A stretch of DNA of 64,000 nt from an uncultured Gammaproteobacteria bacterium (GCA_964394855.1 CAYMZD010000002.1:60575-124574); one strand, 5' to 3'; counted from the first letter of the stretch, positions 31,772-52,540 are shown. A program made the numbers and translations. The notes: generated by a model from the sequence alone, not told the origin.

Positions 31772-32503
31772 ATGGATTTGACAGATCGGCAAAGAGCACT
31801 TTTAAAAGCTATTATTGAAGAGTACATTGACAGCGCTGAACCTGTTGGTAGTGAAGCGGTGGATAAAAAGTATAATTTAGGGGTCTCCCCTGCCACCATT
31901 AGAAACGAGATGGTGCATCTAACAGATATGGGTTATTTAAAACAGCCACACACATCAGCAGGACGTGTCCCCACCTCAATGGGCTTTAGATTTTATATTC
32001 AGGAGTTGATGAAGGAAAAGCAGCTGCCTGTGGCGGCTGAAGTGTCCATCAAGGAAGACATGTGGCAGGAGCGCTACCAACAAGATAAGTTACTTCGCCA
32101 AGCTGTCAAAGCTTTGGCCAAGCAATGTGACATGTTGGGTTTGGCAATAGATAGCGACAACCAAATTTATTATTCAGGAGCTGCCAATATTTTGGACTGG
32201 CCGGAATTTTATGATATTGATGTGACTCGCTTTGTCTTGAGCTTATTTGATGATCTACCGGTTGGCGGGTTGCAACAAATTATTGGTAAGGCAGAAGGAT
32301 CTGACCCAATTCATATTTTATTTGGCGATGAGTTGGAATTTGAAAATTTAGCGCCCACTGGATTTATTTTTACCAGCTATGAAATGGGGCCAAAAAGTGG
32401 TGTGATTGGAGTAATTGGTCCGGCCAGGATGAATTTTCCTCTGGTGATACCTTATGTCAAATATATTAGAGATTTAATTTATGAAGCAGGAAGGAGTTGG
32501 TAA
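31772..32503 (+). CDS. hrcA: heat-inducible transcription repressor HrcA (compact)
   Basis: N-terminal wHTH LTDRQRALLKAIIEEYIDSAEPVGSEAV; operon position before grpE-dnaK-dnaJ. Confidence 0.8.
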   Translation: MDLTDRQRALLKAIIEEYIDSAEPVGSEAVDKKYNLGVSPATIRNEMVHLTDMGYLKQPHTSAGRVPTSMGFRFYIQELMKEKQLPVAAEVSIKEDMWQERYQQDKLLRQAVKALAKQCDMLGLAIDSDNQIYYSGAANILDWPEFYDIDVTRFVLSLFDDLPVGGLQQIIGKAEGSDPIHILFGDELEFENLAPTGFIFTSYEMGPKSGVIGVIGPARMNFPLVIPYVKYIRDLIYEAGRSW

Positions 32504-32943
32504 TGCCCAAGAAAAAAGACACCAAAGTTGAAGAATTAGAAAATCAGCTTAAAAGAGCAGTGGCTGATTATCATAATCTGGAAAAACGGGTTAGTGAAGG
32601 TAGGTCGGAACTAACTAATTTTGTGGGAGCGGAGCTTATTAAAAGACTGCTGCCGGTTTTAGATCATCTGGAAAGGGCTTTATCTAGCGCATCAGAACTG
32701 GAAAAAGAATCAGGATGGTTTAAGGGAGTAGAGCTGGCTGTTAAAGAATTTGAGCAGGTATTACAATCTGAAGGTTTGGAGGAAATACCTGCAGACGGAG
32801 TATTTAATCCAAGCCTTCATGAAGCTGTTGACACAAGGGATGGAGAAAATAATATGATTTTAGAAGTTGTCAAAAAGGGTTATAATTTAAATGGAAAAGT
32901 ACTTCGCCCGGCCCAAGTAGTAGTTGGAAGGAGGAGAAACTAA
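32497..32943 (+). CDS. grpE: nucleotide exchange factor GrpE
   Basis: [17 protein letters not shown] coiled-coil and C-terminal beta-domain ([18 protein letters not shown]). Confidence 0.85.
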
Positions 32944-32944
32944 T

Positions 32945-34876: not shown

Positions 34877-34879
34877 TGG

Positions 34880-35764
34880 ATGGCTACAAAAAGAGATTAC
34901 TACGATATTTTAGGGGTTTCCAAGGGAGCCGGTGAAGCGGAGATTAAGTCTGCTTATCGCAAACTGGCCAGAAAACACCATCCTGATATAGATAAATCTG
35001 CTGGAAGTGCGGAAAGATTCAAAGAGGTTTCCGAAGCATATCAAGTTCTATCTGACCCTCAGAAAAAATCTTCTTATGACCAATTTGGCCATTCGGCCTT
35101 TGACCCTTCGGCAGGCTCAGGGCCTTTTGGTAGAGGAGCTGGCGGTTGGCAGCAATATAGTTGGTCAACCGGTGGGTTTTCCGCCAAAGGCGGACCAGCC
35201 TCTGGCTGGGACTTTGGTGGTTTTGAAGATCCATTTGAACTGTTTGAACAGATTTTTGGCATGGGTGGGTTTGGAGAAGGGATGAGGAGAAGACCCACTT
35301 ATACCATGGATTTAAAATTTGACGAGGCAGTTCATGGTGTCACTAAACAAATTCAAGTTGAGGATAAAAAAATGACCATTAAAGTACCGGCCGGAGTGGA
35401 TAATGGTACCAGAATGCGCTTTAATGAGTTGGATATTGTTTTTCATGTTAACCGCCACCCGGAATTTATTAGAGAAGGAGCGGATATTTTTTCGGAAATA
35501 AAAGTTTCTATTCCCCAACTGGTTTTGGGGGATGTCTTTGAAGTTTCAACTGTGCAGGGGAAAGTAAAAGTGAAGGTGCCCCCTGGCACCCAACCAGGAT
35601 CGCTGGTTAGGCTCAAAGGCAAGGGTGTTCCCAGATTAAATGGTGGCCACGGAGATCACTATGTCAGAGTCCATCTAAATGTTCCTCAAAACCCATCCAA
35701 AGAAGAAAAAAGGCTTTATGAAGAGTTATATCGCTTGGGTTCCAAGAAAAAAGGTTGGTTTTAA
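34880..35764 (+). CDS. dnaJ: DnaJ-family co-chaperone (J domain + G/F region + CTD, no Zn-finger)
   Basis: J-domain with HPD ([11 protein letters not shown]), Gly/Phe-rich linker, C-terminal substrate-binding beta-domains; no CxxCxGxG repeats. Confidence 0.8.
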
Positions 35765-35825
35765 ACTTGACTTTTAAGATACTGACAGAGTAGAATATTG
35801 TTGTTAATAATCCAAAGGACCTAAA

Positions 35826-35853
35826 AAGGTGGGCTAGTCCCACCTTAATTTTT
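35826..35853 (+). terminator. rho-independent terminator after dnaJ
   Basis: aaggtggg-ctagt-cccacctt (8-bp stem) then aattttt, ending 4 nt before the nusA ATG. A possible promoter (ttgact-18-tagaat) lies at 35767-35800. Confidence 0.55.
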
Positions 35854-35856
35854 ACT

Positions 35857-36906
35857 ATGGCACAAGCTAGAACAGAATTTGTAGCTGCCCTAAATCAAAT
35901 AGCTTCTGAAAAAGGAGTAGACGTATCAGTTGTTTTGGATGCTATTAAGATTGCAGCTCTAGCTGCCTATAAAAAAGATTTAAGCATCCGTAGCCAACCC
36001 ATTCCAGAAGATATTGATGAATATACCTCTGAAGTAAACCCCACCACAGGCGAAATAACCATTTTCCAAGGTCAAAATAACGTTACTCCGCCTGGATTTG
36101 CCCGTATTGCTGCCTCAATTGCCAAACAGGTAATTTTGCAAAAACTGCACGAGGCAGAAAAAAGTGCTGTCATGTCTGAATATGAAAACAAAATTGGCAC
36201 AGTTATTTCAGGTTTAATACAGCGTCAAGAGGGCAACACGTATTTTATTGATTTGGGGAGAGCAGAAGGAATGATGCCACCCCAGGAGCAGGTGAGGAGT
36301 GAAATTTATCAGCCTAATATGAGGATGAAGTTTTATATCAAAGACATAAGAGAAGAAAGCCATGGTTTGGAAGTAATAGTTTCTCGTAGCGATCCGGGTT
36401 TAGTTAAAGGTCTTTTTGCCATGGAGGTGCCGGAAATTCAATCAGGCAGTGTAGAGATTGTGGTTTTGGCTAGGGAAGCTGGTTCTAGAACTAAAATTGC
36501 CGCCTCCTCCAGTCAAGATGGTGTGGATCCGGTAGGTTCTTTAGTGGGACAAAAAGGAGTGAGAGTTCAAGCAGTTACTCAAGAGCTGGGAGAGGAAAAA
36601 ATTGACATCATTACTTACTCCGACGATCCGGCCCGTTTTATCCAGGCAGCGCTTTCTCCAGCCAAAGATGTTCAGGTTCGTTTAAACAAAGAAGAGAATG
36701 TGGCTAAAGCTTTAGTACCTAACTCTCAACTATCTTTGGCCATTGGTAAAGGTGGACAAAATGTGCGTTTAGCAGCCAAGCTGACTGGTTGGAAAATTGA
36801 TATTGAAGGATTGGAAGAGGAGGGAACGGGAGAGCAAAAAGAAGAGCCTCAAGCTGGAACTCAACCCCCTGATGATGTAAAAGCTGATAAAAAAGAAAAG
36901 AAGTAA
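35857..36906 (+). CDS. nusA: transcription termination/antitermination factor NusA
   Basis: NusA N-domain, S1 ([21 protein letters not shown]) and KH1/KH2 ([23 protein letters not shown]), acidic tail. Confidence 0.9.
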
Positions 36907-36910
36907 AAAT

Positions 36911-38365
36911 ATGGCAGAAATGACACGTCCGCCCATAGTCACTATACTCGGCCATGTTGACCATGGCAAAACTACCCTACTTGATTTTATCAGGAAATCC
37001 TCTGTAGCAGCAAAGGAACATGGTGGGATTACCCAGCATATTGGTGCATATCAAGTTGAACATGATGGTAAATTAATTACTTTTATTGATACTCCTGGAC
37101 ATGCTGCTTTTGAAAAAATGCGCTCTAGGGGCGCTAAAGTGGCAGACATTGCAGTTTTGGTGGTGGCAGTAGATGATGGGGTGATGCCACAAACTATTGA
37201 GGCTATCAAACACATTCAGGAGGCAAAAGTCCCCATGATTGTAGCTATTAATAAAACAGATTTACCTGGCATAAATGTAAAAGTACAGCTGGAGAAGATT
37301 AAAAAGCAACTTTCAGACCAAAAAGTTTTAGCAGAAGAATATGGAGGAGATGTGCCCATAATTTCACTTTCTGCCAAAACCGGTGAAGGTGTGGATAAAC
37401 TCTTGGAGATGATCAGTCTGTTAGCAGAGCTGCATGAGCTTAAAAGTGAATCTGATATAGCGCCATCAGGAGTAGTGATTGAGGCTAATTTAGATAAATC
37501 CAGAGGCCCGCTGGCCACACTTTTAATAAGAAATGGCACTTTAAAAAAAGGTATACAGATTATAGTGGGTGGAGTAAAAGGTAAGATCAAGGGTATGTTT
37601 GATTTCAATGGGAAGAGTATAGAAGCGGCTGGCCCTTCTACTCCGGTGGAAGTGCTTGGACTTGAGAGTGTTCCAGGGGTGGGTGCTACTTTGGGACAGG
37701 AAATGGAACAAGAATCAAGAATGAAGCAGCAAGAGCTAAGCTTACTTGAAAAATTAAAGGCAGGAGAAAGTAAAACTCTAAAAGTGATTATTAAAGCTGA
37801 TAAGCAAGGATCGCTAGAGGCTATTGTCCATTCTTTGGACAAAATTAATAAAAATGCCAAACTGATAGAAGTTATTTCAAGCGGGACAGGAGATATATTG
37901 GAGGGTGATGTGAAGCTGGCTTCGTCTGTGGGGGCGATCATTATTGGATTTAATGTCAAGGTGGTACCAACCGCTGTTAAAATGGCTGAAACAGAGCATG
38001 TTTTAATAAGAACCTACAATATTATATATGAGCTGCTCTCGGAGCTAGAAGATGTTTTGGAGGGGATGTTTAAGGTGGGGCAAGTAGAGGAGATTTTAGG
38101 CAAAGCTAATATTATTGCTGAATTCCCCTTTGGAAAGTCAGAGCGAGTTCTCGGGTGTCGGGTCATTGAAGGAGTAATTAGTAAAGGATCAAAAATAAGA
38201 GTGAAAAGGGATGAAGAGGTAGTGGGCGAGAGTAAACTAAAGTCCTTAAGGGTTGTGAAAGATGAAGTGCAAAAGGCAGAAAAGGGTCAAGATTGCGGCA
38301 TGCTTTTTGATCCTGCCATAGATTTCCAAATAGGGGACACAGTAGAATCCTTCAGGGTAATATGA
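36911..38365 (+). CDS. infB: translation initiation factor IF-2 (short form lacking the N-terminal extension)
   Basis: G-domain [28 protein letters not shown]; C-terminal beta-barrels. Confidence 0.9.
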
Positions 38366-39393
38366 TAGAGAACTTTGATCTTTTCAGACCGCTACCATTT
38401 CTCGACACCACCCGCCAGTTGGCCAGACAAGCAACAGGAAGAGTGGGGCTTGAAGCCATGGTTTGGTATCCAGACCCCCCAACCTATCAATTTGTTAACA
38501 TGTTGGAGGAGGCTGCTAAAAGACAAGTTCAAGCACAGGCAAAAATAGATTACTATTCTTTGATGACCACTGATTTTCACAATAATCTTTTCCCCATGCC
38601 GCAACTAAGAAGAGAGAGAGGAAGAAAGACTCAAGAGATGGTTCAGAGGATGAGGAAGGCTGGAGTGTCAGTAGATCTTTTAAACCCCCCCAGTCTTTTG
38701 CAAAGATTAATACCCCAGTTGGGCAGAAACCATCGCAAAATAGGTTTAATTGATGGTGTTGGTTTTGTAATGGGTTTTAATCTTTCCAAATACAATTTTG
38801 ACTGTGAAGATATAGCAGTAGCTTTAACTGAACCACAAGCAGTAAAAAGATTAGCTGAAGTTTTTGAGGAAGCAGGTCTGGTGGAAAGAGATGATCGAGA
38901 GATTTACTGCGGCGGGAACACTTATTTATTAGTTGATTATGGTCGGGTTGGTCAATCTCTAATTTTAGATCGGGCAGTGGAGATGGTGAGGGGGGCTAGG
39001 GACTACGTGAGGTGGGTTAATCTTTTTCCTCCCAATGGTCGATTGGAAGTTGAGATGGCAAGAGCATCCAAAAGAGGGGTTGATGTGGAGGGAATTATTA
39101 CCAGGCCAGTTTGGGTTAGAAAAGCCAGGTGGGATATCAGGTTAATGCAGCTTGTGAATAGTCTCCAGTCTTATTCTCTTGGTAATCAGTTAGCTTTGGG
39201 ATATCACAATCCTGATATTCATGCCAAAGTTCTAGTAACTGATAATCAAACATTGGTAGGTTCACATAATTTAGTTTGGGAAGGTGTCTGGGCCGGCACA
39301 GAGGAGTTAGACATTTTTTCTACTAATCCTATTCTGGAGAGAAAATTAAATAGATATTATGCCCAACTTAAACTAGGTAGTCGGGCAGCTTGA
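38362..39393 (+). CDS. phospholipase-D superfamily protein with two HKD motifs (cardiolipin-synthase-like, no TM segment)
   Basis: HRKIGLIDGVGFVMGFN and HAKVLVTDNQTLVGSHN (HxKxxxxD...G(S)xN). ATGA overlap with the infB stop. Confidence 0.6.
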   Translation: MIENFDLFRPLPFLDTTRQLARQATGRVGLEAMVWYPDPPTYQFVNMLEEAAKRQVQAQAKIDYYSLMTTDFHNNLFPMPQLRRERGRKTQEMVQRMRKAGVSVDLLNPPSLLQRLIPQLGRNHRKIGLIDGVGFVMGFNLSKYNFDCEDIAVALTEPQAVKRLAEVFEEAGLVERDDREIYCGGNTYLLVDYGRVGQSLILDRAVEMVRGARDYVRWVNLFPPNGRLEVEMARASKRGVDVEGIITRPVWVRKARWDIRLMQLVNSLQSYSLGNQLALGYHNPDIHAKVLVTDNQTLVGSHNLVWEGVWAGTEELDIFSTNPILERKLNRYYAQLKLGSRAA

Positions 39394-39437
39394 TAGGGGT
39401 TGACTCTTATGGGTTATGGGTGTAAAATCCAGACATC

Positions 39438-40430
39438 ATGAAATACGATAGTCAACTAATAGAGTTGAAAAACCTGCTTCCGTCTGCCAAAAGCATTTTA
39501 ATTGCCTTACCTAGCAACTGCGATATGGACCGCTTCGCCGCCGGGCTGGCCCTTTTTTTATCATTCAATGCCCAAGGTAAGGAAGTTTCAGTAGTTTGTG
39601 ATGACACAATTCATGTGGCCCAGTCTCATCTTTTTGGGGTGAACCATGTCCAAAAAAATATACCCCAAACTCAAGGCGGTAATTTTGTTATCAGCTTGGA
39701 GGGAGTAGCTGTCCCCAACTCATCCTCCCCCCAAGGAGGACAAGCTCCAGCCTTGGAAAAAATGGATTATGTGGTAGAAGGCAATAATTTAAATTTAGTT
39801 TTCTATATTTTACCAGGTCAAACTTTTCAGCCTTCAAGGATAGTGCCCCATTATCAAGGTAGCGGTTTTAACCTAATTTTTACAATTGGTGCTGCCAATT
39901 TAAACCATTTGGGAAATATATATTTACAAAATCAGGGAGCTTTTTCTGGTGTTCATGTAGTTAATATTGATATTCAAGCGGCCAACACCTCCTTTGGCCA
40001 AACTAATGTAGTTGATAGCGCAGCTTCTTCTGTGGCTGAAATAATGACAGATGTGGTGGGAGCACTGGGGTTGCCTTTTGATGCAGATATTGCTTCAAAT
40101 TTATTGGCGGGAATTTTTGAGGCTACCTCCAATTTGACTTCACAAAATGTTAGTGCAGATACGCATCTCGCGGTGGCCAATTGTTTAAGAATTGGCGGCA
40201 GAAAACCGGAAGTCTTACAAAATGCAATACCCGCTAGCGGAGGTTTTGATTTAAGCAGTTTGATCAGCCCCAAACCCACAGTGGAAGCTTTTACTGCTCC
40301 GCCTATATCCAGTGAGCCACAACCTTCTCCAGAAGAAAGACCATCAGGGGAAGGATTGGCTGCTGAAAGTATCGAACCAGAACCAGGTTGGTTAACCCCT
40401 AAAGTTTTCAAGGGCGGTTCTGTGGGTTAA
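39438..40430 (+). CDS. degenerate NrnA-like DHH-family protein (DHH motif replaced, no DHHA1 domain) with Pro/Ser/Glu-rich tail
   Basis: Aligns from memory to NrnA around motif I (ILIALPSNCDMDRFAAGLAL ~ ILHRHVRPDPDAYGS) and motif III (VVNIDIQAANTSFGQTNVVDSAASSVAEIM ~ KIDHHPNEDPYGDLLWVDTSASSVSEMI). DHH is changed to DIQ, motif II and IV Asp residues are substituted, and the GGGH/DHHA1 domain is missing. Confidence 0.4.
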   Translation: MKYDSQLIELKNLLPSAKSILIALPSNCDMDRFAAGLALFLSFNAQGKEVSVVCDDTIHVAQSHLFGVNHVQKNIPQTQGGNFVISLEGVAVPNSSSPQGGQAPALEKMDYVVEGNNLNLVFYILPGQTFQPSRIVPHYQGSGFNLIFTIGAANLNHLGNIYLQNQGAFSGVHVVNIDIQAANTSFGQTNVVDSAASSVAEIMTDVVGALGLPFDADIASNLLAGIFEATSNLTSQNVSADTHLAVANCLRIGGRKPEVLQNAIPASGGFDLSSLISPKPTVEAFTAPPISSEPQPSPEERPSGEGLAAESIEPEPGWLTPKVFKGGSVG

Positions 40431-40434
40431 TCCT

Positions 40435-40462
40435 TGCTATTTTAAATTCTATCTGGTATACT
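40435..40462 (+). promoter_or_regulatory. rpsO promoter TTGCTA-16-TGgTATACT (extended -10), followed by a ~70-nt structured leader
   Basis: ttgcta(40435-40), tgg+tatact(40454-62). The leader contains cccgc-ttg-gcggg (40511-23) and a ccct/aggg pairing that could form an S15 autoregulatory structure. Confidence 0.5.
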
Positions 40463-40538
40463 ACGCTTGAAAGTTAAGGATGACTTCTTGGCACCGAAGT
40501 TACTCCCTGCCCCGCTTGGCGGGACTAGAAAGGGTAAG

Positions 40539-40808
40539 ATGCCACTTGATGTAAAGAAAAAACAAAAGATTATTGAAGAGTTTGCTACCAAAAAGGGTGA
40601 TACAGGTTCTCCAGAGGTTCAAGTAGCACTTTTAACTGAACAGATTAAAAACTTGGCAGCTCACCTAAAAGAGCACCCGCATGACGTTCACTCCAGACGT
40701 GGCCTTTTATCTATGGTCAATAAAAGAAGAAGGCTGTTGCAGTATTTATTAAAAAAAGATGAAGAACGTTACAAGACAACGATTGACAAGCTTGGTTTAA
40801 GTAAGTAG
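40539..40808 (+). CDS. rpsO: 30S ribosomal protein S15
   Basis: [57 protein letters not shown] matches S15. The track's TTG-start extension (40467) is probably 5' leader. Confidence 0.85.
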
Positions 40809-40905
40809 TATTAGTGAGGGGTTTTATTGGAAATTGTAAATTGAGGATAAGGGTTATCCTTGTCTCCAGTTACCCAGTTTCCAAATGCCCCAAAACAAAA
40901 TTTAG

Positions 40906-43209
40906 ATGTCGAATATCATTACTAAAGAAATTGACCTAAATGGTCGAACGCTCAAGTTGGAAACAGGTAAGCTTGCTTTGCAGGCTAATTCCTCTGTGGT
41001 AGCCTCTTGGGGGGAAACAGTAGTTTTGGTGACAGTTTCCACCCAACCTTCACCAGAGGCCATAGCTTACTTTCCCTTATCAGTGGAGTTTGTGGAAAAA
41101 CATTATGCGGGGGGAAGAATTTCCTCTTCCAAATTTATCAAACGCGAGTCCAGGCCCTCTGATGAAGCTATTTTAACAGGTAGATTGATTGACCGCTCCA
41201 TCAGACCACTTTTTCCCAAGGATTTTCACCAAGAAGTTCAAGTGATAGTGACTGTGCTATCAATTGACCAAGCCAATGATCCTGACATTTTAGGCTTAAT
41301 TGGCACATCAGCAGCCCTGTCTATTTCTGCCATTCCTTGGCAGGGCCCATTAGGTGGTGCCAGAGTAGGTGTTAGTGATGGTACTTTGGTAGTTAATCCT
41401 ACCATTCAAGAGGCAGAACATCTTCAATTAGATGTCTTTGCGGCCTCAACTAAAGATAAAGTGGTGATGGTTGAAGCTGGAGGAAAGGAAGTGCCTGATG
41501 AGAAAGTTTTTGAAGCCATCAAGAAGGCTCACCAAGAATCTCAAGCCATAATTGGCCTCATAGAAGAGTTTACCAAAAAGGTTGGCAAAGAAAAACTAAC
41601 CTATTCTTCTTTGGCAGAAGAGGTGGAAGAGGCAATTTTAGAAGAAGTTAAAACCATAGCCAGAGAAAAAATTGAAGCAGCTTTATTTGATTCTGAACAC
41701 CCTTGGCATGAAGCAACAGGAGAAATAATTAAGACAGAACTAGCCATAAAATATGCAGAGGTTTTAACACCACAAATTGTATCTGGAGTATTTGATAAAG
41801 TGGCCAAGGAGATCATGAATGATGCTATTTTAAAGCAGGGTAAAAGAGTCGATGGAAGGGCTATGGATGAGATAAGGCCTATCTCCATTGAAGTAGGAGT
41901 ATTGCCTAGAACTCATGGTTCTGCCCTTTTCCAGCGTGGAGACACCCAAGTTTTATCAGTAGTCACTTTGGCGGCGCCATCTCTATCTCAAACCATTGAG
42001 GGTATGACAGGCGAAGAGCAGAAAAGATTTATGCACCATTACAATATGAGTATTAACCCATTTGCTACAGGTGAAGTAAAAAGAATTGGTGCTCCCAATA
42101 GAAGAGATATCGGCCATGGTGCACTGGTGGAAAAAGCCCTGAAAGAAGTGATGCCATCAGAAGAAAGTTTTCCTTATGCCATTAGAGTAGTTTCGGAAGT
42201 ATTGGCAGCCAATGCCTCCACTTCTATGGCCTCCCTTTGTGCCTCAACCTTGGCCCTGCTAAATGCGGGAGTTCCCATAAAAGAACCAGTGGCTGGAGTG
42301 GCCATGGGACTTTTATCAGACGAACAAAAGTTTCAAGTAATTACAGACATGCGGGCAGTGGAGGATTTTTATGGGGAGATGGATTTTAAGGTGGCTGGTA
42401 CCAAAGATGGTATTACTGTTATTCAAATGGATACAAAACTAGCAGGTTTATCCTTTGAAATTATTCAGCAGGCGCTAGATCAAGGTAAAAAGGCTAGATT
42501 GTTGATTTTAGATAAAATTAATCAGGCTGTGCCCAGTGTTGGTCAACTTTCTCCTTTGGCACCCAGAGTAGAAATTATTCATATAAAACCAGAAGATATT
42601 GGTAGCTTAATTGGGCCGGGGGGCAAAAATATCAACTCCATCATTGCCAAAACCAAAGCAGCAATTGATATCGAAGATGATGGAACAGTGATGGTTTCAT
42701 CAAGTAATGAGGAGTCTATCAATAAAGCCATGGCCGCCATAAAAGGGATGTTCCAAGAGATTAAGGTCGGCGAGGAGTTTATGGGTAAAGTGGTGCGTTT
42801 GGCTCCTTTTGGGGCTTTTGTGGAAATTTTACCTGGTAAAGACGGGTTAGTCCATATATCCCAAATGGCCCCAGGCCATGTGGAAAAAGCAGAAGATATA
42901 GTATCTGAAGGTCAGGAAGTCAAGGTCAGGGTGACTGAAGTTTCTCCAGATGGCAAGGTGGGTTTATCAATGCTTTTTGGAGACGATGTTAAACCAGAAA
43001 GAGAAGGCTCGCCTCGCTTCGCGGGCGGAGCAGGAAGACCTTCTGGTCGAAGCAGAGGTTTAGAGGGTGCTAGAGGTGGATTTGGAAACCGTCCTAGGTT
43101 TGGCGGAGAAAGACCAGGATTTGACAGAAGAAGGCCCGGTGGTTTTAGAGCTCGAGGACCACGTACAGGCGGGTTCAACCGCGGGGGTCGTGGCGGATTT
43201 AATAGATAA
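40906..43209 (+). CDS. pnp: polynucleotide phosphorylase (PNPase) with C-terminal Arg/Gly-rich (RGG-type) tail
   Basis: Two RNase-PH domains, KH (GPGGKNINSII) and S1 (GKVVRLAPFGAFVEILPGKDGLVHISQM), then ~60 aa of RGG/RGGF repeats. Confidence 0.9.
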   Translation: MSNIITKEIDLNGRTLKLETGKLALQANSSVVASWGETVVLVTVSTQPSPEAIAYFPLSVEFVEKHYAGGRISSSKFIKRESRPSDEAILTGRLIDRSIRPLFPKDFHQEVQVIVTVLSIDQANDPDILGLIGTSAALSISAIPWQGPLGGARVGVSDGTLVVNPTIQEAEHLQLDVFAASTKDKVVMVEAGGKEVPDEKVFEAIKKAHQESQAIIGLIEEFTKKVGKEKLTYSSLAEEVEEAILEEVKTIAREKIEAALFDSEHPWHEATGEIIKTELAIKYAEVLTPQIVSGVFDKVAKEIMNDAILKQGKRVDGRAMDEIRPISIEVGVLPRTHGSALFQRGDTQVLSVVTLAAPSLSQTIEGMTGEEQKRFMHHYNMSINPFATGEVKRIGAPNRRDIGHGALVEKALKEVMPSEESFPYAIRVVSEVLAANASTSMASLCASTLALLNAGVPIKEPVAGVAMGLLSDEQKFQVITDMRAVEDFYGEMDFKVAGTKDGITVIQMDTKLAGLSFEIIQQALDQGKKARLLILDKINQAVPSVGQLSPLAPRVEIIHIKPEDIGSLIGPGGKNINSIIAKTKAAIDIEDDGTVMVSSSNEESINKAMAAIKGMFQEIKVGEEFMGKVVRLAPFGAFVEILPGKDGLVHISQMAPGHVEKAEDIVSEGQEVKVRVTEVSPDGKVGLSMLFGDDVKPEREGSPRFAGGAGRPSGRSRGLEGARGGFGNRPRFGGERPGFDRRRPGGFRARGPRTGGFNRGGRGGFNR

Positions 43210-43230
43210 GGGGTAAAATATAGTTGATTT

Positions 43231-44253
43231 ATGGATAATCCTGTCCAAAATACAGATGAGTTAGTACAAAAAATTACTCAAGCCAATCTCCCTAAAGAAG
43301 TTGCAGAAAGATTACTGAATTTATTGAAGTTTCCAGGTCAAGGTGTAGAGCTAGAAAAGTTAATTGAATATATTGATTTTGTTTTAAGCTTACCTTTTAA
43401 TAAATCCAGTCAGGATATTCTAGATTTAGGAAGGGCCAAGCAAATTTTAGATAAAAACCATTACGGTTTAAAAACAGTCAAAGATAGAATTTTAGAGTAT
43501 TTGGCTGTTTTAATCTTAAATGCCAAATCAGGCAAACAAGAGAGTTTACGGGCACCAATTCTGCTATTTGTGGGGCTGGTGGGAACTGGTAAAACTTCAA
43601 TTGCTTATTCGATTAGTGAAGTCCTGGGTAGGCCTATTTTTAGAATTCCTTTTGGAGGAGTGGGAGACCCGCTGCAACTTCGTGGACAATCCCGAGTTAA
43701 ACCTGATGCAGAGCCGGGTCAAATTATGAAAGCTTTAAAAGTTTTAAAGGTAAACAATCCAATTATTTTGCTTGATGAGATAGATAGAGTGGCAGAAGAG
43801 GGGAGGGTCGATATGATGGGAGTTTTGGTTGAACTGTTAGATCCCCAACAAAATCATGCTTTTTTAGATCATTATTTAGATTTTCCATTTGATTTATCCA
43901 GGATTTTGTTTATCGCCACAGCCAACAATACCGGCAATATCGCCACAGCAGTGATGGACAGGCTTGAACCTATTCAAATGCCTGCTTATAGTGACGGCGA
44001 AAAATTAATCATTGGCAAAAACTATCTTTTACCCCAGGCCGTGGAAGAATCTGGGCTAACAGCCGGTCAACTGGTGATAGATGAGATGGTTTGGCCACAG
44101 ATATTAAGACCATTAGGTTTTGATGCAGGCATCAGGTCCCTGCAACGAACCCTACAAGGTTTAACTCGCAAAATAGCTAGGCAGGCAGTAGAAGGTAATC
44201 TTGGACCATTTACCATTACAACACAAAATATTGGAGAATATTTAATAGACTAA
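43231..44253 (+). CDS. stand-alone Lon-type AAA+ ATPase module (no Lon N-domain, no protease domain)
   Basis: Near-colinear match to the Lon AAA+ core (LDKNHYGLKTVKDRILEYLAV, Walker A GLVGTGKTS, FGGVGDPLQLRG, Walker B ILLDEID, LDPQQNHAFLDHYL, ATANN ... MDRLE). The ORF ends with TAATG coupling to rnj; no S-K protease dyad region follows. Confidence 0.7.
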   Translation: MDNPVQNTDELVQKITQANLPKEVAERLLNLLKFPGQGVELEKLIEYIDFVLSLPFNKSSQDILDLGRAKQILDKNHYGLKTVKDRILEYLAVLILNAKSGKQESLRAPILLFVGLVGTGKTSIAYSISEVLGRPIFRIPFGGVGDPLQLRGQSRVKPDAEPGQIMKALKVLKVNNPIILLDEIDRVAEEGRVDMMGVLVELLDPQQNHAFLDHYLDFPFDLSRILFIATANNTGNIATAVMDRLEPIQMPAYSDGEKLIIGKNYLLPQAVEESGLTAGQLVIDEMVWPQILRPLGFDAGIRSLQRTLQGLTRKIARQAVEGNLGPFTITTQNIGEYLID

Positions 44254-45917
44254 TGAAAACGTTTGGAGGAAATTTAAAAATTATCCCGCTGGGTGGAGTT
44301 GGTGATGTCACTAAAAATATGTATGTTTATGAGATGGGTGATGATTTAGTGATTGTTGATTGTGGAGTGGGTTTTCCAGATGAAGCCATGCCGGGAGTTG
44401 ATTTGGTGATTCCCGATATTTCCTACTTGCGTGATAAAAAACACAAAATCAAGGCTATCTTAATCACTCATGGTCATGATGATCATATTGGGGGTTTACC
44501 TTACATTTGGCCAGAATTACAAGTACCAATTTATACCCAAAAGTTGACCGCCGGATTTATCAGAGCTAAATTTAGCGAACACAATCTTCCCAAAAATAAA
44601 ATCTTGGAAGTTGCCTTAGATGCCAAATTAAAATTGGGGGTGTTTGATATTTCTTTTTATCAAGTTTCCCACTCCGTGCCAGACTCAACAGGCGTGGTGA
44701 TTAGAACGCCCGCTGGTACGCTGGTGCACCAAGCCGATTTTAAAATTGACTGGACTCCTGTTTCGGGACAAGTGACTGATGTGGGTAAAGCTGCTCAGCT
44801 GGGGGCGGGAGGAGTGGATCTTCTTTTAATTGATTGTTTAAGGATAGAAAAAGCCGGTTTTAATAAATCGGAGAAATCGATCGAGGAAACTTTCGCTAAA
44901 GCGGCAGAAGAAACACCGGGAAAACTTCTAATTACCATGACCTCTTCCAATGTATCGCGGATGCAGCAGGCAATCAATGTGGCGGGGAGGTTAGGTCGAA
45001 AATTGGCAGTGGTGGGTCGGAGCTTTGAAAATAATTTTCAAGTGGCCAGGGATTTGGGATATTTGCATGTTCCCCCGCATCTTCTGGTTGCATCGGATGC
45101 GGTCATGAGTTTTGCCCCGAATAAAATACTGGTGCTTATTGCCGGAGCGCAGGGTCAGCAGGGTTCGTCCCTGTCGCGGGCAGCCAACGGGCAGCACAAG
45201 CAGATTATTTTAAAAAGCGGGGATAGCGTGGTTTTTTCCGCCGACCCCATCCCCTCTACCGAGTCGGCCCAATCTGCCTTAATTGATACCTTAGTGAGGC
45301 TGGGGGTGGATGTTTATTATTCTGCCATCCAATCTGACCTGCATGTGAGTGGGCATGCAGCCAAAGAAGAGTTGAGACTGATGGTTAATTTAATAAGGCC
45401 CAAATATATGATTCCTATTGGGGGAACTTATCGCCACATGAAGGAATTTTCCCGTACTTTTCAAGAGATGGGTTATAAAAAAGAAGCTATATTAGAGCCG
45501 GTGGATGGTGATATTATTCAAATGGGTGCGGGTAAGATTAGCATTGTCGGTAAGGTGGAAGTTAAAAATGTTTTTGTGGACGGGTTAGGGGTGGGTGATG
45601 TGGGGCACGTGGTTTTGCGGGACCGTCAGGTCATGAGTGAAGAAGGAATTGTGGTAGTGGTGGTGCCGGTTGATCAACAGACAGGCAGTTTGGGTGGAGA
45701 AGTGGATGTGATTTCCCGCGGTTTTGTTTTTGAACAAATGGCAGAGGGGTTGTTGGAAGAAGCTAAGGAAGTAGTTAAAAATACCTTGTTGGGTCACGGA
45801 GGCAAAGTGTCGGACTGGAGGTTTATTCGCAGGATGATAGAAAACGAGCTGGAGCAGTTTTTATTTAAAGCAACAGAAAGAAGACCATTAATTCTGCCGC
45901 TGGTGGTAGAAGTTTAA
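44253..45917 (+). CDS. rnj: ribonuclease J (metallo-beta-lactamase/beta-CASP)
   Basis: ITHGHDDHIGG (HxHxDH), beta-CASP motifs, C-terminal domain; 554 aa. Confidence 0.85.
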   Translation: MKTFGGNLKIIPLGGVGDVTKNMYVYEMGDDLVIVDCGVGFPDEAMPGVDLVIPDISYLRDKKHKIKAILITHGHDDHIGGLPYIWPELQVPIYTQKLTAGFIRAKFSEHNLPKNKILEVALDAKLKLGVFDISFYQVSHSVPDSTGVVIRTPAGTLVHQADFKIDWTPVSGQVTDVGKAAQLGAGGVDLLLIDCLRIEKAGFNKSEKSIEETFAKAAEETPGKLLITMTSSNVSRMQQAINVAGRLGRKLAVVGRSFENNFQVARDLGYLHVPPHLLVASDAVMSFAPNKILVLIAGAQGQQGSSLSRAANGQHKQIILKSGDSVVFSADPIPSTESAQSALIDTLVRLGVDVYYSAIQSDLHVSGHAAKEELRLMVNLIRPKYMIPIGGTYRHMKEFSRTFQEMGYKKEAILEPVDGDIIQMGAGKISIVGKVEVKNVFVDGLGVGDVGHVVLRDRQVMSEEGIVVVVVPVDQQTGSLGGEVDVISRGFVFEQMAEGLLEEAKEVVKNTLLGHGGKVSDWRFIRRMIENELEQFLFKATERRPLILPLVVEV

Positions 45918-45963
45918 ACTATAAGTTATAAATGATATAATAATAATTATTATATAAAAAATC

Positions 45964-48072
45964 ATGCCAAGACGAAGATCTATTTACGGAATGCCCAAAC
46001 TGCGATTGAAACATCGTACTATTGTGACCATAGGCTCACTGGTTAGTTTTATGTTGGCAGGTTTATCCATAGTTTCTCTGGCCACCGATACTGTTGCTTT
46101 GCAATTTTGGAAGAGGTTCTTGTTTGAACTTTTTGGTTGGACAGCGATTATTTCTCCAATTATATTTTTACTGGCTGGTATGGTTTTACAACGGTTTAAA
46201 TGGCCTTTCGCCCAAACCAATGTATTGTTGGGTTTGATTTTAATCATATTTTCTGCAGTTAGTTTAACAGCTCCTTTTTCCACCACTAGTGCTGGTAGTT
46301 TGGGCGTGACACTGTGGACACAGCTATCCTCTTTTATCACTGATGTTGGAGCAACCATCTTGCTTTTGGGAGTGTTCTTGGTAGGTTTGGTAGTTTTTCT
46401 TAATACCTCGCTGACCCAAATTATTAAAGTGATTTTTGCTATTGTTAGTTTTCTAAATGAGAAGATATTTAAGCCATTTATTTGGAACCCTATTTTTCAA
46501 AGACCGCGGGGATTTGAGGCCAAAAACATTCCCATTAAAGTTTCTGGAATCAGCGCCGTTGAGTCCTCAAAAAGCAAAAATCAAGCGGTTTTGGCAGATG
46601 AACTGATTCAAAATGTGGCTGGACAAACAAAAGTTTGGAAATATCCGCCCATATCACTTTTATCTGATAAGGTTGGTTCGGCTGCAGACAGGGGTGATGT
46701 TAAGAAAAATGTAGCCATCATTGAGAAGACTCTTGATTCTTTTGGTATCCAAGCTAAAGTGGCAGAAGTTAACGGGGGACCAGCTGTGACCCAGTATGCC
46801 TTGGAGATTTCCGCTGGTACTAAAATTGCCAAAATCGCCAATTTGCAGCATGACTTAGCCTTGGCTTTGGCCACTCCTACTGGTACAGTTAGAGTGGAAG
46901 CTCCCATCCCGGGAAAATCACTGGTGGGAATTGAGGTTCCTAATCGCTCCCTGGAAATAGTAGGTTTAAAATCAATCCTGACATCAGAAGAACTGGAAAA
47001 ACATAAATCCAAGCTGGCAGTGGCTTTGGGACGAGACACAGCTTCTAACCCGGTGGTGGTTGATTTAGACAGAATGCCTCACTGTTTAGTGGCAGGAACA
47101 ACTGGCTCTGGTAAATCTGTCTTAATAAATGCTTTTATTTCCACCTTGCTTTATAGAAATTCCCCCCAAGAGTTAAAAGTGATTTTGATTGATCCCAAAA
47201 GAGTGGAATTAACAGGTTACAATGGCATACCTCATCTTTTAACTCCGGTTATTACTGAACCGGAAAAAATTCTCTCGGCTTTAAAGTGGGCCATGGCCGA
47301 AATGGATCGTAGATATAAACTTTTCCAACAAGTAGGAGTGAGAAACATTGTCGGTTATAATGAGATGTCTGGTTTTCAAGCTCTTCCCTATATTGTCATT
47401 ATTGTTGATGAACTGGCAGATTTGATGATGTTTGCCCCGGTGGAAATAGAAGATGCCATTACTCGCTTGGCGCAAATGGCCAGGGCTACAGGTATTCACT
47501 TGGTGGTGTCGACCCAGCGACCTTCAGTGGATGTTATCACTGGCTTAATCAAAGCCAATATTCCCTGTCGGATTGCTTTTAATGTATCTTCCATGGTTGA
47601 CTCTAGAGTGATTATTGACCAACCAGGGGCGGAAAAATTGCTGGGGCGGGGAGATATGTTGTTTTTACCGCCTGATGCTTCCAAACCGGTGCGTATTCAG
47701 GGAGTGATGGTGAAAGATGAGGAAATTAATGAGCTGATCAAATTTTTGAAATCAACTGGTATTGCTCCTGAATATACGGCCGAAGTGACAGAGATGCCGC
47801 TGGGCAGATGGGGTAAAGGAGTAAATGGTGGTGGTGGTGGACAGGATGATCTGTTTGAAGAGGCAGTTAGGACAGTTTGTCAATATGACAGAGCCTCGGC
47901 CTCGCTTCTTCAAAGGAGGCTTAGGGTGGGCTATGCCCGGGCAGCCAGAATTTTGGATGAGCTGGAGAGTGCTGGTATTGTCGGTCCGGGTGAAGGGGCC
48001 AAACCAAGAGATGTACTGGTTCGAAATGCCGAAGAATATTTAGCTCAAAAAGCTGGGGTTGTTGAAGGTTAA
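45964..48072 (+). CDS. ftsK: DNA translocase FtsK/SpoIIIE
   Basis: 4 N-terminal TM helices, linker, motor domain (HCLVAGTTGSGKSVLINAFI, IVIIVDELADLMM), C-terminal gamma winged-helix (LLQRRLRVGYARAARILDELE). Confidence 0.9.
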   Translation: MPRRRSIYGMPKLRLKHRTIVTIGSLVSFMLAGLSIVSLATDTVALQFWKRFLFELFGWTAIISPIIFLLAGMVLQRFKWPFAQTNVLLGLILIIFSAVSLTAPFSTTSAGSLGVTLWTQLSSFITDVGATILLLGVFLVGLVVFLNTSLTQIIKVIFAIVSFLNEKIFKPFIWNPIFQRPRGFEAKNIPIKVSGISAVESSKSKNQAVLADELIQNVAGQTKVWKYPPISLLSDKVGSAADRGDVKKNVAIIEKTLDSFGIQAKVAEVNGGPAVTQYALEISAGTKIAKIANLQHDLALALATPTGTVRVEAPIPGKSLVGIEVPNRSLEIVGLKSILTSEELEKHKSKLAVALGRDTASNPVVVDLDRMPHCLVAGTTGSGKSVLINAFISTLLYRNSPQELKVILIDPKRVELTGYNGIPHLLTPVITEPEKILSALKWAMAEMDRRYKLFQQVGVRNIVGYNEMSGFQALPYIVIIVDELADLMMFAPVEIEDAITRLAQMARATGIHLVVSTQRPSVDVITGLIKANIPCRIAFNVSSMVDSRVIIDQPGAEKLLGRGDMLFLPPDASKPVRIQGVMVKDEEINELIKFLKSTGIAPEYTAEVTEMPLGRWGKGVNGGGGGQDDLFEEAVRTVCQYDRASASLLQRRLRVGYARAARILDELESAGIVGPGEGAKPRDVLVRNAEEYLAQKAGVVEG

Positions 48073-49078: not shown

Positions 49079-50380
49079 ATGAATTCTGATAACTTAAGAG
49101 AGAAATTTTTAAAATTTTTTGCCAGATGCGGACATGTCATCATCCCCTCTGCCTCATTAATACCTTCGGCAGAAGAACAATTAGCTGGTAAAGAAAAGGT
49201 TTTATTTACCAGCGCTGGTATGCAGCCTTTAATTCCCTACCTTTTAGGTAAACCACACCCTCAAGGTAAAAGATTAGCTGATGTACAAAAATGTTTAAGA
49301 ACCGATGATATAGAAGAAGTAGGAGATGCTGTGCATAATACATTTTTTGAAATGTTAGGGAATTGGTCGCTCGGTGCTTATTGGAAGGATGAAGCTATAA
49401 GACTTTCTTTTGAATTTTTGACTAAAGAGTTAGAAATTTCCATAGAAAAGTTAGCAGTCAGTGTGTTTGCAGGGGATGAAAATACTCCCAAAGATGAGGA
49501 GTCGGCAAGAGTATGGGAAAGTCTGGGAATTCCCAAAGATAGGATTTTTTATTTTGGTAAAGAATATAATTGGTGGCCAACTGGTGAAAAATCAGGCCCA
49601 TGTGGTCCAGATACGGAAATGTTTTATTGGACAGGGGAAGGTGAACCAGCAGGCAAGCCAAATGAAAATTCTTTATGGGTGGAAATATGGAATGATGTTT
49701 TTATGCAGTTCAATCGGCAAGATGACGGGATGCTGGAGGAGCTAAAACAAAAAAACGTTGATACGGGGATGGGACTGGAAAGAACTTTAGCGGTATTAAA
49801 TGGTAAAAAAAACAATTACCAAACAGATTTATTTGAACCAATTATGCAGATGATCGAAAAGGTGACAGGCAAAGTATATGGACAAGACGATTGGGATACT
49901 GTCCGATTCAGAATCATTGCTGATCATGTTAAAGGAGCAACCTTTTTAATTGGGGATGGTGTCAGGCCTTCGAATAAAGATAGAGGTTATATTTTACGTC
50001 GTCTAGTTCGCCGTGCGGCCATGCAACTGCATTTATTAAAAAAAATTACCAATGAAAAAGACTTTATTTCTATTAGCGACGCTGTTATTGAGATCTATGG
50101 AGGATTTTATTTTTTAGATTCAGAGCATCAAAGAAAAATCGTGGCGGAGGAAATTGGAGCAGAGATTTCTAAATTTATTAAAACAATTGAAAAAGGTTTA
50201 CAGGTATATAAAAAAACAGGACAAGTTGTTTCTGGTCAAGAAGCTTTCTTTCTTTTCCAAAGCTTTGGTTTTCCCCTAGAGTTGACAATGGATTTAGCCA
50301 AAGAAGATGGTAAGATGATAGATAAAGAGGGATTTGAGAAAGAATTTAAAAAGCATCAAGCTATTTCCCGTGGGGAGTAG
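49079..50380 (+). CDS. alaS: alanyl-tRNA synthetase, catalytic + tRNA-recognition core only (433 aa; no editing or C-Ala domains)
   Basis: Class II AlaRS N-terminus (FLKFFARCGHVIIPSASLIP, LFTSAGMQP, QKCLRTDDIEEVGDAVHNTFFEMLGNWSLGAYWK, WWPTGEKSGPCGPDTE). The stop at 50380 is followed by an unrelated gene. Confidence 0.8.
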   Translation: MNSDNLREKFLKFFARCGHVIIPSASLIPSAEEQLAGKEKVLFTSAGMQPLIPYLLGKPHPQGKRLADVQKCLRTDDIEEVGDAVHNTFFEMLGNWSLGAYWKDEAIRLSFEFLTKELEISIEKLAVSVFAGDENTPKDEESARVWESLGIPKDRIFYFGKEYNWWPTGEKSGPCGPDTEMFYWTGEGEPAGKPNENSLWVEIWNDVFMQFNRQDDGMLEELKQKNVDTGMGLERTLAVLNGKKNNYQTDLFEPIMQMIEKVTGKVYGQDDWDTVRFRIIADHVKGATFLIGDGVRPSNKDRGYILRRLVRRAAMQLHLLKKITNEKDFISISDAVIEIYGGFYFLDSEHQRKIVAEEIGAEISKFIKTIEKGLQVYKKTGQVVSGQEAFFLFQSFGFPLELTMDLAKEDGKMIDKEGFEKEFKKHQAISRGE

Positions 50381-50404
50381 TTTGTGCTAAACTAAAAACT
50401 GTCC

Positions 50405-52540
50405 ATGAGCTTGTTGGAAAAACTCACTAATTTCTTACCATTTACCAAAACTAAGCAGCAGGCAAAACACTTCTTTGCTTTAAATATTGGCCCGGAAAAA
50501 GTTAAAGCAGCTCTTTGGTCTATTGAGGATAAAAATTTACAAGTTGTTAACCCTGTTTTTACAAAATACTCTTCCGCGGATGAACTTTTACAAGTAGCTG
50601 ACCATTTACTTGATCAGACATTGGGAGATCTAAATGTGGAGCCAGAAAAAATTCTTTTTGGTGTTCCAGATTCTTGGCTATTGGATGATGAGTTAAAAGA
50701 ACCATATTTGAAACTCCTTCGTAATATAGTTAAAGAGCTAAGTTTAAAACCCATGGCTTATGTAGCCACCTCACATGCGCTGGCTCATTTTCTAGAGAGT
50801 CTTGAGGGAGCACCCACTACAGCCATTTTAGTGGGTATTGAGGAGAGTTTCTTGAGCATCACAGTAGTCAGGGCTGGTAAAATTGATGGGACTAAACTGA
50901 TAAAGCGGGGTGATAATCTTGGGGAAGAGATTGAAAAAGCGCTACTTTCTTTTACCGAAGTTGAGGTTTTACCTTCAAAAATATTGTTATATGGCTTGGA
51001 GGGGTTAGATAAACACAAAAGCAATTTACTGGCTTTTCCCTGGATGTCAAAACTATCTTTCCTGCATTTTCCCAAGATCGAGACCTTGGAAGAAGATGTA
51101 GAGTTAACAGCAACAGCTTTAGCTGGAGCAGTGGAACTTCAAGGTGATGTTAAATATTCCCCCAGTTCATCTATGGTCACCATCACCCCCCAAAAAAAGT
51201 TATCGGTAATGGAGGAAGAGGAAGCTGAAGAAAGGAAGCCACCAACAAAGACACAAAATGAAACTGGTTTTGTGACAGGGGATATTACCAAAGTACCAGA
51301 AAAGGAAGAACCAGAGGAAGAGAAGCCCCCCATGATCGTGGCTGAAGATGAGCTGTTAGAGCAGCCCCATCATGCAAGATTTAAGCTACCATTTTTAAAG
51401 CTGTCTTATTTGAGGGGTAAAAATAAGTTACTTATTTTGCCGGCAGCAATTTTAATTTTGACTATTTTCTATCTATTATTCTCTCAAGCCAAAGTGACTG
51501 TTTTTGTGGAACCACGAGTTTTAGAAAGAGACTCTCAAGTTACAGCTGATCCCAATGTAAAGACGGTTGATGAAGCAAATAAGATTATTCCAGGACAATT
51601 CACAGAAGTGCAGGTTGCTGGATCAGACAAGTTGGCAGCCACTGGAAGAAAAGAGGTGGGTGATCCAGCCAAAGGCACAGTGGTTATTTATAATAAGACA
51701 GATTCTGCCAAGACGTTTTCTAGTGGTACCGCTTTAACTGGTTCAGGTGGACTCAAGTTTACTCTAAATTCTACTGTTAATGTTGCTTCCCAATCGGCCA
51801 TTGAAGGGGGTATCTCTTTTGGGAAAGCCACTACCGGTGTGACTGCTGTTTTGATAGGAGCAGATGGAAATATCTCGTCTGGGACAGAATTGTCTTTAGC
51901 TAGTTTTTCTTCCTCACAATATTCAGCTAAAGCCGAAGGTAATTTTTCTGGAGGGAACTCCAAAGAAGTAACTGTGGTGACAGATAGTGATCAGAAAAAA
52001 CTTTTAGCATCTTTGGCAGCAGCGCTTCGCAAAAAAGCCCAAGAGGAATTGCAAAAAAGCTTGGAAGGAAAAAAGATTCTAGAAGAAGCTCTGTCTGAAG
52101 ATATTATTAAAAAATCATACTCCAAGAATATCAATGATCAAGCATCGGAATTTTCTTTAAGCTTGACTATTAAATATAAAGGTATTGCCTATTCTGAACC
52201 TGATTTAAAGCTGATCGTTTCCAAATTAATAGAAACTAATGTCCCGGCTGATTTTGAGTTGAACTTAGCTGAAACAGAGACGCAAGCAGATGTTTCCAAG
52301 CTGGAAAAAGATAAATTGATCTTTCTGGCACGGTTTAAAGCTAAATTAATGCCCAAATTGGATATAGCTAAAATAAAATCACAACTTAGGGGGAAAACAC
52401 CTCAAGAGGTAGCCGCTATTTTAAAAAGTTATGAAAATGTTTTAGGTTCTGACATAAAACTTAATCCTTCCTTGCCTGCCCCAATTGCCAGGTTACCGCT
52501 ATTGGATAGAAATATCCACATCGAGGTGAGTTTGAAGTAA
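50405..52540 (+). CDS. bitopic membrane protein: degenerate actin-like (FtsA/PilM/GspL-type) cytoplasmic domain, acidic linker, TM helix, ~330-aa extracellular domain
   Basis: N-terminal pattern FALNIGPEKVKAALWS ... AILVGIEESFLSITVVRAGKI ... ILLYGLEG resembles ASKHA phosphate/adenosine motifs with substitutions. Glu-rich linker, then TM (LLILPAAILILTIFYLLF), then a Ser/Thr/Gly-rich beta-type region. Confidence 0.35.
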   Translation: MSLLEKLTNFLPFTKTKQQAKHFFALNIGPEKVKAALWSIEDKNLQVVNPVFTKYSSADELLQVADHLLDQTLGDLNVEPEKILFGVPDSWLLDDELKEPYLKLLRNIVKELSLKPMAYVATSHALAHFLESLEGAPTTAILVGIEESFLSITVVRAGKIDGTKLIKRGDNLGEEIEKALLSFTEVEVLPSKILLYGLEGLDKHKSNLLAFPWMSKLSFLHFPKIETLEEDVELTATALAGAVELQGDVKYSPSSSMVTITPQKKLSVMEEEEAEERKPPTKTQNETGFVTGDITKVPEKEEPEEEKPPMIVAEDELLEQPHHARFKLPFLKLSYLRGKNKLLILPAAILILTIFYLLFSQAKVTVFVEPRVLERDSQVTADPNVKTVDEANKIIPGQFTEVQVAGSDKLAATGRKEVGDPAKGTVVIYNKTDSAKTFSSGTALTGSGGLKFTLNSTVNVASQSAIEGGISFGKATTGVTAVLIGADGNISSGTELSLASFSSSQYSAKAEGNFSGGNSKEVTVVTDSDQKKLLASLAAALRKKAQEELQKSLEGKKILEEALSEDIIKKSYSKNINDQASEFSLSLTIKYKGIAYSEPDLKLIVSKLIETNVPADFELNLAETETQADVSKLEKDKLIFLARFKAKLMPKLDIAKIKSQLRGKTPQEVAAILKSYENVLGSDIKLNPSLPAPIARLPLLDRNIHIEVSLK

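Follow-up and report, generated by a model that had tools for sequence, protein, structure and literature searches.

The 64,000-nucleotide stretch of metagenomic DNA considered here as a whole (GCA_964394855.1 CAYMZD010000002.1:60575-124574, hereafter the window) carries on its plus strand, at positions 49079-50380, an alaS gene that codes for an alanyl-tRNA synthetase (AlaRS) of only 433 amino acids (aa). The open reading frame (ORF) begins with ATG, runs for 433 codons to a TAG stop and contains PF01411 as its sole Pfam domain. Its product is identical to MBI4036438.1, held at NCBI as 'alanine--tRNA ligase [Candidatus Daviesbacteria bacterium]', and the window maps to the 283-kb contig JACQIZ010000003.1 of GCA_016198205.1, a Candidatus Daviesbacteria metagenome-assembled genome (MAG) of the Candidate Phyla Radiation (CPR, or Patescibacteria). 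The class II catalytic (aminoacylation) domain takes up residues ~1-245 (49079-49813, plus strand), as delimited by the motif positions, the alignment with Aquifex AlaRS and the beta-sheet core E65-E232 of a structural model, and it bears R74 within QKCLR, FFEMLGNW (89-96), GPCGPDTE (173-180), WNDVFMQF (204-211) and DTGMGLER (228-235, including D228 and G232). It is followed by the helical tRNA-recognition domain at residues ~246-433 (49814-50377, plus strand), identified by the model helices H253-H432, by structural similarity (TM-score) to Escherichia coli AlaRS-441 and by N299 and Q394. The protein ends in ...KKHQAISRGE, with the stop two residues past the end of the conserved ...HQxxSR helix.

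The PF01411 (tRNA-synt_2c) match covers residues 6-431 (413.9 bits, gathering cut-off 30.3; E 1.3e-123), and the coverage of the profile ends at position 429 of 552. Similarly, the best NCBIfam model, NF002436/PRK01584 (595 positions), is covered from position 1 to 435 (519.4 bits, cut-off 529), and TIGR00344, the canonical alaS model of 847 positions, from 1 to 427 (425.8 bits, cut-off 457.05). Neither PF07973 (editing) nor C-Ala/DHHA1 was found in the 433-aa protein by the Pfam and NCBIfam scans. A first-pass annotation, made from the bare DNA, had called an AlaRS of 433 aa at 49079-50380 that ends after the tRNA-recognition domain, with both the editing domain and C-Ala missing from the locus; the ORF call and the extent of the PF01411 match reproduce the reading frame and its end point, and the family scans, tBLASTN and a six-frame profile search agree on the identity of the enzyme and on the missing domains.

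The short alaS is a genuine, intact gene. Five contigs, assembled from three independent runs (SRR12113420, SRR12113430, SRR12113422), and the NCBI MAG all encode the exact 433-aa protein; this repeated recovery rules out an assembly error at the stop codon, and with it an assembly artefact as the origin of the short ORF. An editing domain hidden in another frame or in the downstream gene was also ruled out. Specifically, tBLASTN with five Daviesbacteria editing modules against the 64-kb window returned none (best E 0.26, inside PNPase according to Pfam), a profile hidden Markov model (HMM) of 109 editing modules gave a best E of 3.1 over all stop-to-stop segments of the six frames of the window, and the three frames read across the alaS stop codon are closed or unrelated. 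The six-frame search and the three-frame reading thus uphold the earlier statement that no frameshift rejoins a downstream editing domain. Assembly error, frameshift, scaffold gap or a recent inactivating mutation can indeed generate short AlaRS genes, and real cases were met among the database relatives: P0025/P0121 (L010) is one long gene split by ten Ns at a scaffold gap; P0139 (L011) comes from an assembly with many frameshifted genes and was discarded as a genuine case; and P0427 is a fragment of P0424 rather than a separate mini form. For the gene in the window such an origin is extremely improbable, as the same gene comes from three runs, no frame holds an editing remnant, just 24 nt lead to the neighbouring gene, the same end point returns in relatives that are 56-67% identical, and conservation is intact and the evolutionary rate normal.

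The core that remains is well preserved. Residues 5-426 align with residues 6-431 of E. coli AlaRS-441 (3hxu; E 8e-82), and an end-to-end alignment was obtained with the Aquifex AlaRS fragment 1-465 (E 8e-88); both fragments have been crystallised and are competent in aminoacylation. The AlphaFold (AF2) model of the protein (predicted local distance difference test, pLDDT, 88.5; predicted TM-score, pTM, 0.87) has the predicted fold of a complete AlaRS catalytic fragment, with TM-scores of 0.85/0.83 against 3hxu (E. coli), 0.84/0.82 against 1riq (Aquifex) and 0.87/0.84 against 5knn (human), and its terminal helix 416-432 is complete; both the alignment and the superposition support the equivalence to AlaRS-441 proposed at first reading. 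Moreover, the protein conforms to 136 of the 137 columns that are at least 90% conserved among 64 long relatives, the lone departure being G286 in place of A, and R74, D228 and G232 are invariant in 70/70 relatives. In a relative-rate comparison it ranks 10th closest of 58 to the outgroup, with no acceleration. No compensatory active-site substitutions common to the short forms were found, their sole shared differences lying in a variable loop at residues 246-266. N299, the equivalent of the G3:U70-contacting N303 of E. coli, is present (reference residues from PMC10036535). Conservation, rate, alignment and predicted fold all agree in suggesting that the remaining core is functional.

To appreciate what has been lost, the protein has to be set against the AlaRS of its lineage. 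The small-AlaRS of CPR, DPANN and Asgard are composed of catalytic, tRNA-recognition ('ATL') and editing domains and lack both the cradle-loop barrel and C-Ala (bioRxiv 10.1101/2023.05.29.542759). The nearest relatives of the 433-aa protein are all CPR small-AlaRS, with 54-67% identity over the whole core. The comparison of alaS length in relatives that the first-pass annotation had called for yields 114 proteins of 569-674 aa among the 120 closest homologues, all of which combine PF01411 with PF07973 and have no further Pfam domain, while a short form recurs in Daviesbacteria and in a group of Parcubacteria; none of the 120 is long enough for the canonical C-Ala. The usual AlaRS of the lineage is therefore a small-AlaRS of ~590-620 aa, without C-Ala and without the beta-barrel subdomain. 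Its C-terminal module (HTATHLLH...CGGPHV, with the HxxxH and CxxxH motifs) aligns over its full length both to residues 6-147 of the free-standing AlaX-S 1v4p and to archaeal cis editing domains, where it matches the core subdomain. The description as a minimal AlaRS devoid of editing and C-Ala domains consequently holds for the absence of both but not for the implied baseline: since the lineage was already without C-Ala and beta-barrel, the event at this locus is the loss of one AlaX-S-sized module of ~160 aa. The 433-aa core clusters inside the small-AlaRS family and lacks its third, editing, domain, and is thus a truncated descendant of that family rather than a member by architecture. As a side observation on the distribution of the family, a genome-collection scan with a full-length long form gave, among the matches listed, a phylogenetically scattered set of long forms, with small-AlaRS of ~590 aa in contigs that bear the labels Clostridia, Bacilli/Tenericutes, Treponema/Spirochaetales, Lentisphaeria, Desulfuromonas and others (loci L012-L091), beyond the CPR, DPANN and Asgard distribution of the preprint; mis-binning may account for some of these labels, or such genomes may carry the gene as a second AlaRS paralogue.

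Where the 433-aa protein stops, long relatives continue as ...EKHRELSR-TASAGMFKGGLADH...HTATHLLH. Four more short relatives stop at the same point, namely P0002 (...SRGG), P0010 (...SRSG; GCA_964556865.1), P0032 (...SKN) and P0037 (...SRQN; GCA_016198145.1), so that the end point is identical in proteins that are just 56-67% identical. The TAG stop and the 24-nt spacer that follows it (50378-50404, plus strand) lie where relatives encode the ~160-aa editing module and are the likely scar of the deletion. Stop and spacer are homologous in the window and in the short-form loci L004 and L005 (TAG tttgtgctaaactaaa..., TAG tttgtgatacactaaa... and TAA ttttatgttaaacttaaa..., respectively), and spacers of 24-62 nt lead from the short alaS genes to their downstream neighbours. 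At the deletion site the long forms L007 and L008 have ~500 bp that code for the editing module, and the alignment of these loci points to a clean excision of ~500 bp that left no remnant.

The right-hand boundary of the deletion is the next ORF (50405-52540, plus strand), which lies outside AlaRS, codes for a protein of 711 aa with no family match and is common to short and long loci. Gene order is the same around short and long alaS, with a RodZ-like helix-turn-helix gene, alaS, the gene for a ~700-aa protein, a sortase gene, RuvX and YceG; the ~700-aa gene comes after short (L004, L005, L006) and long (L007, L008) alaS alike, and its products share 50-60% identity in a six-way alignment. 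The next gene had been called unrelated to AlaRS at first reading, and it is, being a conserved neighbour of both forms in this lineage. This arrangement also bears on whether the short gene could be an additional copy that serves a specialised or non-translational purpose, next to a normal, editing-equipped alaS elsewhere in the genome. Short AlaRS-like paralogues do exist in some organisms, but the short gene fills the syntenic slot that the single long alaS has in related genomes, its core is conserved at housekeeping level without acceleration, and CPR genomes of ~1,000 genes rarely hold duplicate aminoacyl-tRNA synthetase (aaRS) genes. Moreover, among the long Daviesbacteria AlaRS in the database none shares the NCBI accession block of MBI4036438.1, and hence no second CPR-type alaS was seen there; together with the housekeeping slot, this makes a second alaS unlikely, and an accessory paralogue is quite improbable.

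The short form did not arise only once. The five clean short Daviesbacteria forms make up no clade in any of 200 neighbour-joining (NJ) bootstraps, the smallest clade that contains all five embraces at least 26 of the 70 taxa, and the short P0010 pairs with the long P0031 in 191/200 replicates. P0037 has a 62-nt spacer unrelated to the others, and in P0032, which was assembled from two separate runs, the downstream gene is different and lies on the opposite strand. The bootstraps, the different spacer of P0037 and the different downstream context of P0032 rule out a single origin of all short forms. Conversely, the window, L004 and L005 have slightly closer downstream genes in addition to the homologous stop and spacer, and the similarity profile of P0010 is a mosaic along its length. 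Since stop and spacer are shared in part and the profile is mosaic, the sequences argue for at least two or three independent origins of the short form in Daviesbacteria, a count that does not fix the exact number.

Outside Daviesbacteria, 12/150 cluster representatives stop 2-20 residues past the junction, as against 12 over the next 110 residues. A group of Parcubacteria near Yanofskybacteria, reached via P0385, has nine mini-AlaRS of 379-421 aa with PF01411 only (P0385, P0394, P0395, P0396, P0398, P0403, P0436, P0461 and P0476). They are mostly nearest neighbours of one another and all terminate in ...SRxGxEKKF[GKW]K, 10-12 residues past the Daviesbacteria junction, at the point where the long Parcubacteria relative P0393 continues with GGHGLL...HTATHLLH. 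The contig of one of these genes (L174, 10001-11143) is clean, measures 29.8 kb and has its ribosomal genes intact, and 21 kb of this locus revealed no editing module; the real start of the gene is probably ~20 codons upstream of the called one (MTHQEIRRKF...). Ten unrelated AlaRS-core representatives of 435-461 aa (P0248, P0265, P0273, P0289, P0298, P0309, P0322, P0347, P0349 and P0352) end within the inter-domain linker and may be either additional mini-AlaRS lineages or fragments. A metagenome scan with the 433-aa protein returned relatives at 46-54% identity only, none of them short.

The gene in the window is thus very probably a functional housekeeping mini-AlaRS that was made by the clean deletion of the editing core from a CPR small-AlaRS. 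The ancestor would have had an editing core of AlaX-S size behind a catalytic and a tRNA-recognition domain, and neither beta-barrel nor C-Ala; a clean 3' deletion would have taken out the whole editing core, ending two residues after the last tRNA-recognition helix and leaving the 24-nt spacer. The resulting protein would activate alanine and charge tRNA-Ala through recognition of the acceptor stem (G3:U70) alone, by analogy with AlaRS-441/461N, Aquifex N453 and the Tupanvirus mini-AlaRS, which do so. An AlaRS with a canonical alanine pocket misactivates serine and glycine, and because the DTGMGLER pocket is unchanged, the same misactivation is expected of the 433-aa enzyme as of any AlaRS; Ser- and Gly-tRNA-Ala would then not be cleared in cis.

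Several points weigh against this reading. The protein scores just under both NCBIfam equivalog cut-offs, as expected for a truncated protein, since its C-terminal third is absent. The catalytic activity of CPR AlaRS, this one included, is putative. The aspartate that contacts G3 in the AlaRS of E. coli (D400, in YDTYGFP) and Archaeoglobus fulgidus is Q394 here (codon 50258-50260); glutamine occupies this position in 64/70 Daviesbacteria-type relatives, long and short alike, and glutamate in the Parcubacteria group, and CPR small-AlaRS may recognise tRNA-Ala in a way that departs in some details from the model drawn from E. coli and A. fulgidus. As for recurrence, the polyphyly of the short forms rests on NJ bootstraps of a star-like tree, and a single deletion, perhaps passed on by recombination, may be common to the window, L004 and L005. 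Lastly, the source is a MAG, and the DNA covered for this genome of roughly 1,000 genes amounts to ~74 kb, made up of the 64-kb window and the ~10 kb that adjoin it on the 3' side, so that AlaX, DTD or a second alaS may sit elsewhere.

For the fate of mischarged tRNA-Ala, two alternatives are about equally probable: either AlaX-type editing is missing and mistranslation is tolerated in a slow-growing episymbiont with a reduced genome, or a free-standing factor is encoded outside the ~74 kb. In the form of a gene fission, the second alternative holds that an AlaX-like protein encoded elsewhere, possibly with DTD for Gly-tRNA-Ala, completes a two-gene system of normal fidelity. Trans-editing of Ser-tRNA-Ala by free-standing AlaX proteins is widespread, the lost module resembles AlaX-S and could work as a separate protein, and a redundant trans factor already in place would account for the repeated loss of the cis module. 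On the other hand, tRNA_SAD, DTD and YbaK genes were found neither in the window and the 10 kb that follow it nor within 2-21 kb around five further mini-alaS genes. Specifically, a Pfam scan of the twenty small ORFs of the window revealed no AlaX, DTD or YbaK/ProX, the ~10 kb past its 3' end (L009), which contain rpoBC, S12/S7, EF-G, EF-Tu and the S10 operon, hold no editing factor, and the editing-module HMM was negative on L009, L004, L005, L006, L172, L173 and L174, while its positive controls scored E~1e-80. A search with the editing module alone retrieves many CPR proteins of <300 aa, and those checked on long contigs are artefacts or fragments (L011, L010 and P0206, the last a contig-edge partial and not a free-standing editing protein), so that they lend no support to a trans-acting AlaX. 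The full-text literature searched yielded no paper tying AlaRS editing loss, AlaX or trans-editing to CPR/Patescibacteria. Trans-editing has a substantial chance, one that falls somewhat short of even. With similar caution, it can be tentatively proposed that several CPR lineages, including this Daviesbacteria, are without AlaX-type proofreading of Ser- and Gly-tRNA-Ala both in cis and in trans. The preferred reading of the gene as a housekeeping mini-AlaRS is compatible with either alternative.

As to the surroundings of the gene, the 711-aa neighbour has no Pfam or NCBIfam family and no match to the editing-module HMM, the only similarity being a sub-threshold one to Baseplate_J (E 0.008). 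It has a hydrophobic segment in mid-protein and many residues invariant across six Daviesbacteria, always lies between alaS and the sortase gene, and may be a lineage-specific cell-surface or sortase-associated protein. The long-alaS Daviesbacteria genome GCA_028712705.1 has an insertion just upstream of alaS (L008, 4496-4928), a HicA toxin paired with DUF7387 on the strand opposite to alaS, which the window lacks at the equivalent position. The G+C content of alaS is 37%, in the lower-GC part of the window; the region ~32000-48000, with hrcA, grpE and adjacent genes, PNPase, an AAA/Lon-like ATPase, RNase J and FtsK, reaches 42-44%, and most of the rest has 35-39%. Elsewhere, 21795-22709 (minus strand) encodes a protein of 304 aa that combines fibronectin-III with dockerin type I domains, the dockerin being an unusual find in CPR, and 28692-29144 (plus strand) encodes a stand-alone PIN-domain protein. 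No tRNA genes and no Rfam matches were found within the window, and promoter and terminator scans around alaS gave chance-level results only.

Among the synthetases, AlaRS is usually singled out as the only one to retain its four-domain prototype across all of biology. Its editing function is deemed important enough to have a back-up in free-standing AlaX and is otherwise treated as universally conserved, its partial loss being toxic in yeast and neurodegenerative in mice. Against this background, the CPR bacteria appear to have shed the editing core repeatedly and always at the inter-domain linker, giving rise to mini-AlaRS that are cellular, recurrent and independently derived, which is what is new here. 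Natural sister pairs of long and short enzymes (P0010 with P0031, P0002 with P0003) allow tests of the weight of AlaRS editing in vivo, and also bear on the tolerance of Ala-to-Ser/Gly mistranslation in reduced-genome symbionts and on tRNA binding without C-Ala and editing domains. If editing were truly missing in cis and in trans, these lineages would be the first known case of cellular life without the editing function of AlaRS, and the repeated clean loss would mean that the fidelity of alanine codons is under relaxed or reversed selection in ultra-small episymbionts. Caution is also advisable in annotation, as the NCBI record labels the 433-aa protein simply 'alanine--tRNA ligase'.

Among known systems, the closest by descent is the small-AlaRS itself (NF002436/PRK01584), which has in common with the 433-aa protein the catalytic domain and the tRNA-recognition domain, the lack of beta-barrel and C-Ala and the genomic slot, but retains the ~160-aa editing core with HxxxH and CxxxH. 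The engineered E. coli AlaRS-441 (3hxu) and 461N and Aquifex N453 (1riq) have the same domains and nearly the same end point (TM 0.82-0.85), and N453 efficiently charges a G3:U70 minihelix (PMC10036535); these are, however, laboratory truncations of four-domain enzymes, whereas the form described here is natural, inherited and recurrent. The AlaRS of Nanoarchaeum equitans is split into alpha and beta subunits (PMC10036535), and thus likewise does not carry all its domains on one polypeptide, but its split falls inside the tRNA-recognition domain and a second gene supplies the rest, while in the window the break comes after the complete domain and no second half was found in the ~74 kb. Free-standing AlaX-S (Pyrococcus horikoshii PH0574; 1v4p, 1wxo) matches the lost module in size and sequence and is the natural candidate for its replacement in trans, although neither the window nor the flanks of the other mini-alaS loci were found to contain an AlaX-S gene.

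No published mini-AlaRS was found for a cellular organism, and the closest precedent is that of Tupanvirus (TuAlaRS, 461 aa; Antika et al. 2023), which charges tRNA-Ala and a microhelix and replaces yeast AlaRS (PMC10036535). Its authors presented it as, to their knowledge, the only natural aaRS with just an aminoacylation domain that functions normally (PMC10036535). The locus in the window extends this architecture from a viral case, presented as unique in 2023 (PMC10036535), to AlaRS in cellular organisms, at the syntenic position of the housekeeping alaS. Both TuAlaRS and the 433-aa protein consist of catalytic and tRNA-recognition domains only. TuAlaRS groups with amoebal cytoplasmic AlaRS, and P321 and T416 replace both of its G3:U70-contacting residues (PMC10036535); as it works without them, such residues can be dispensable. 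Conversely, the 433-aa protein keeps the asparagine (N299) and has Gln394 at the position of the aspartate. TuAlaRS is viral and of eukaryotic descent, while the 433-aa protein is bacterial, was independently derived from a CPR small-AlaRS and is apparently the only AlaRS of the cellular organism to which it belongs. Judged by sequence, the likeness of the two enzymes is one of convergence, with no common descent from the TuAlaRS lineage.

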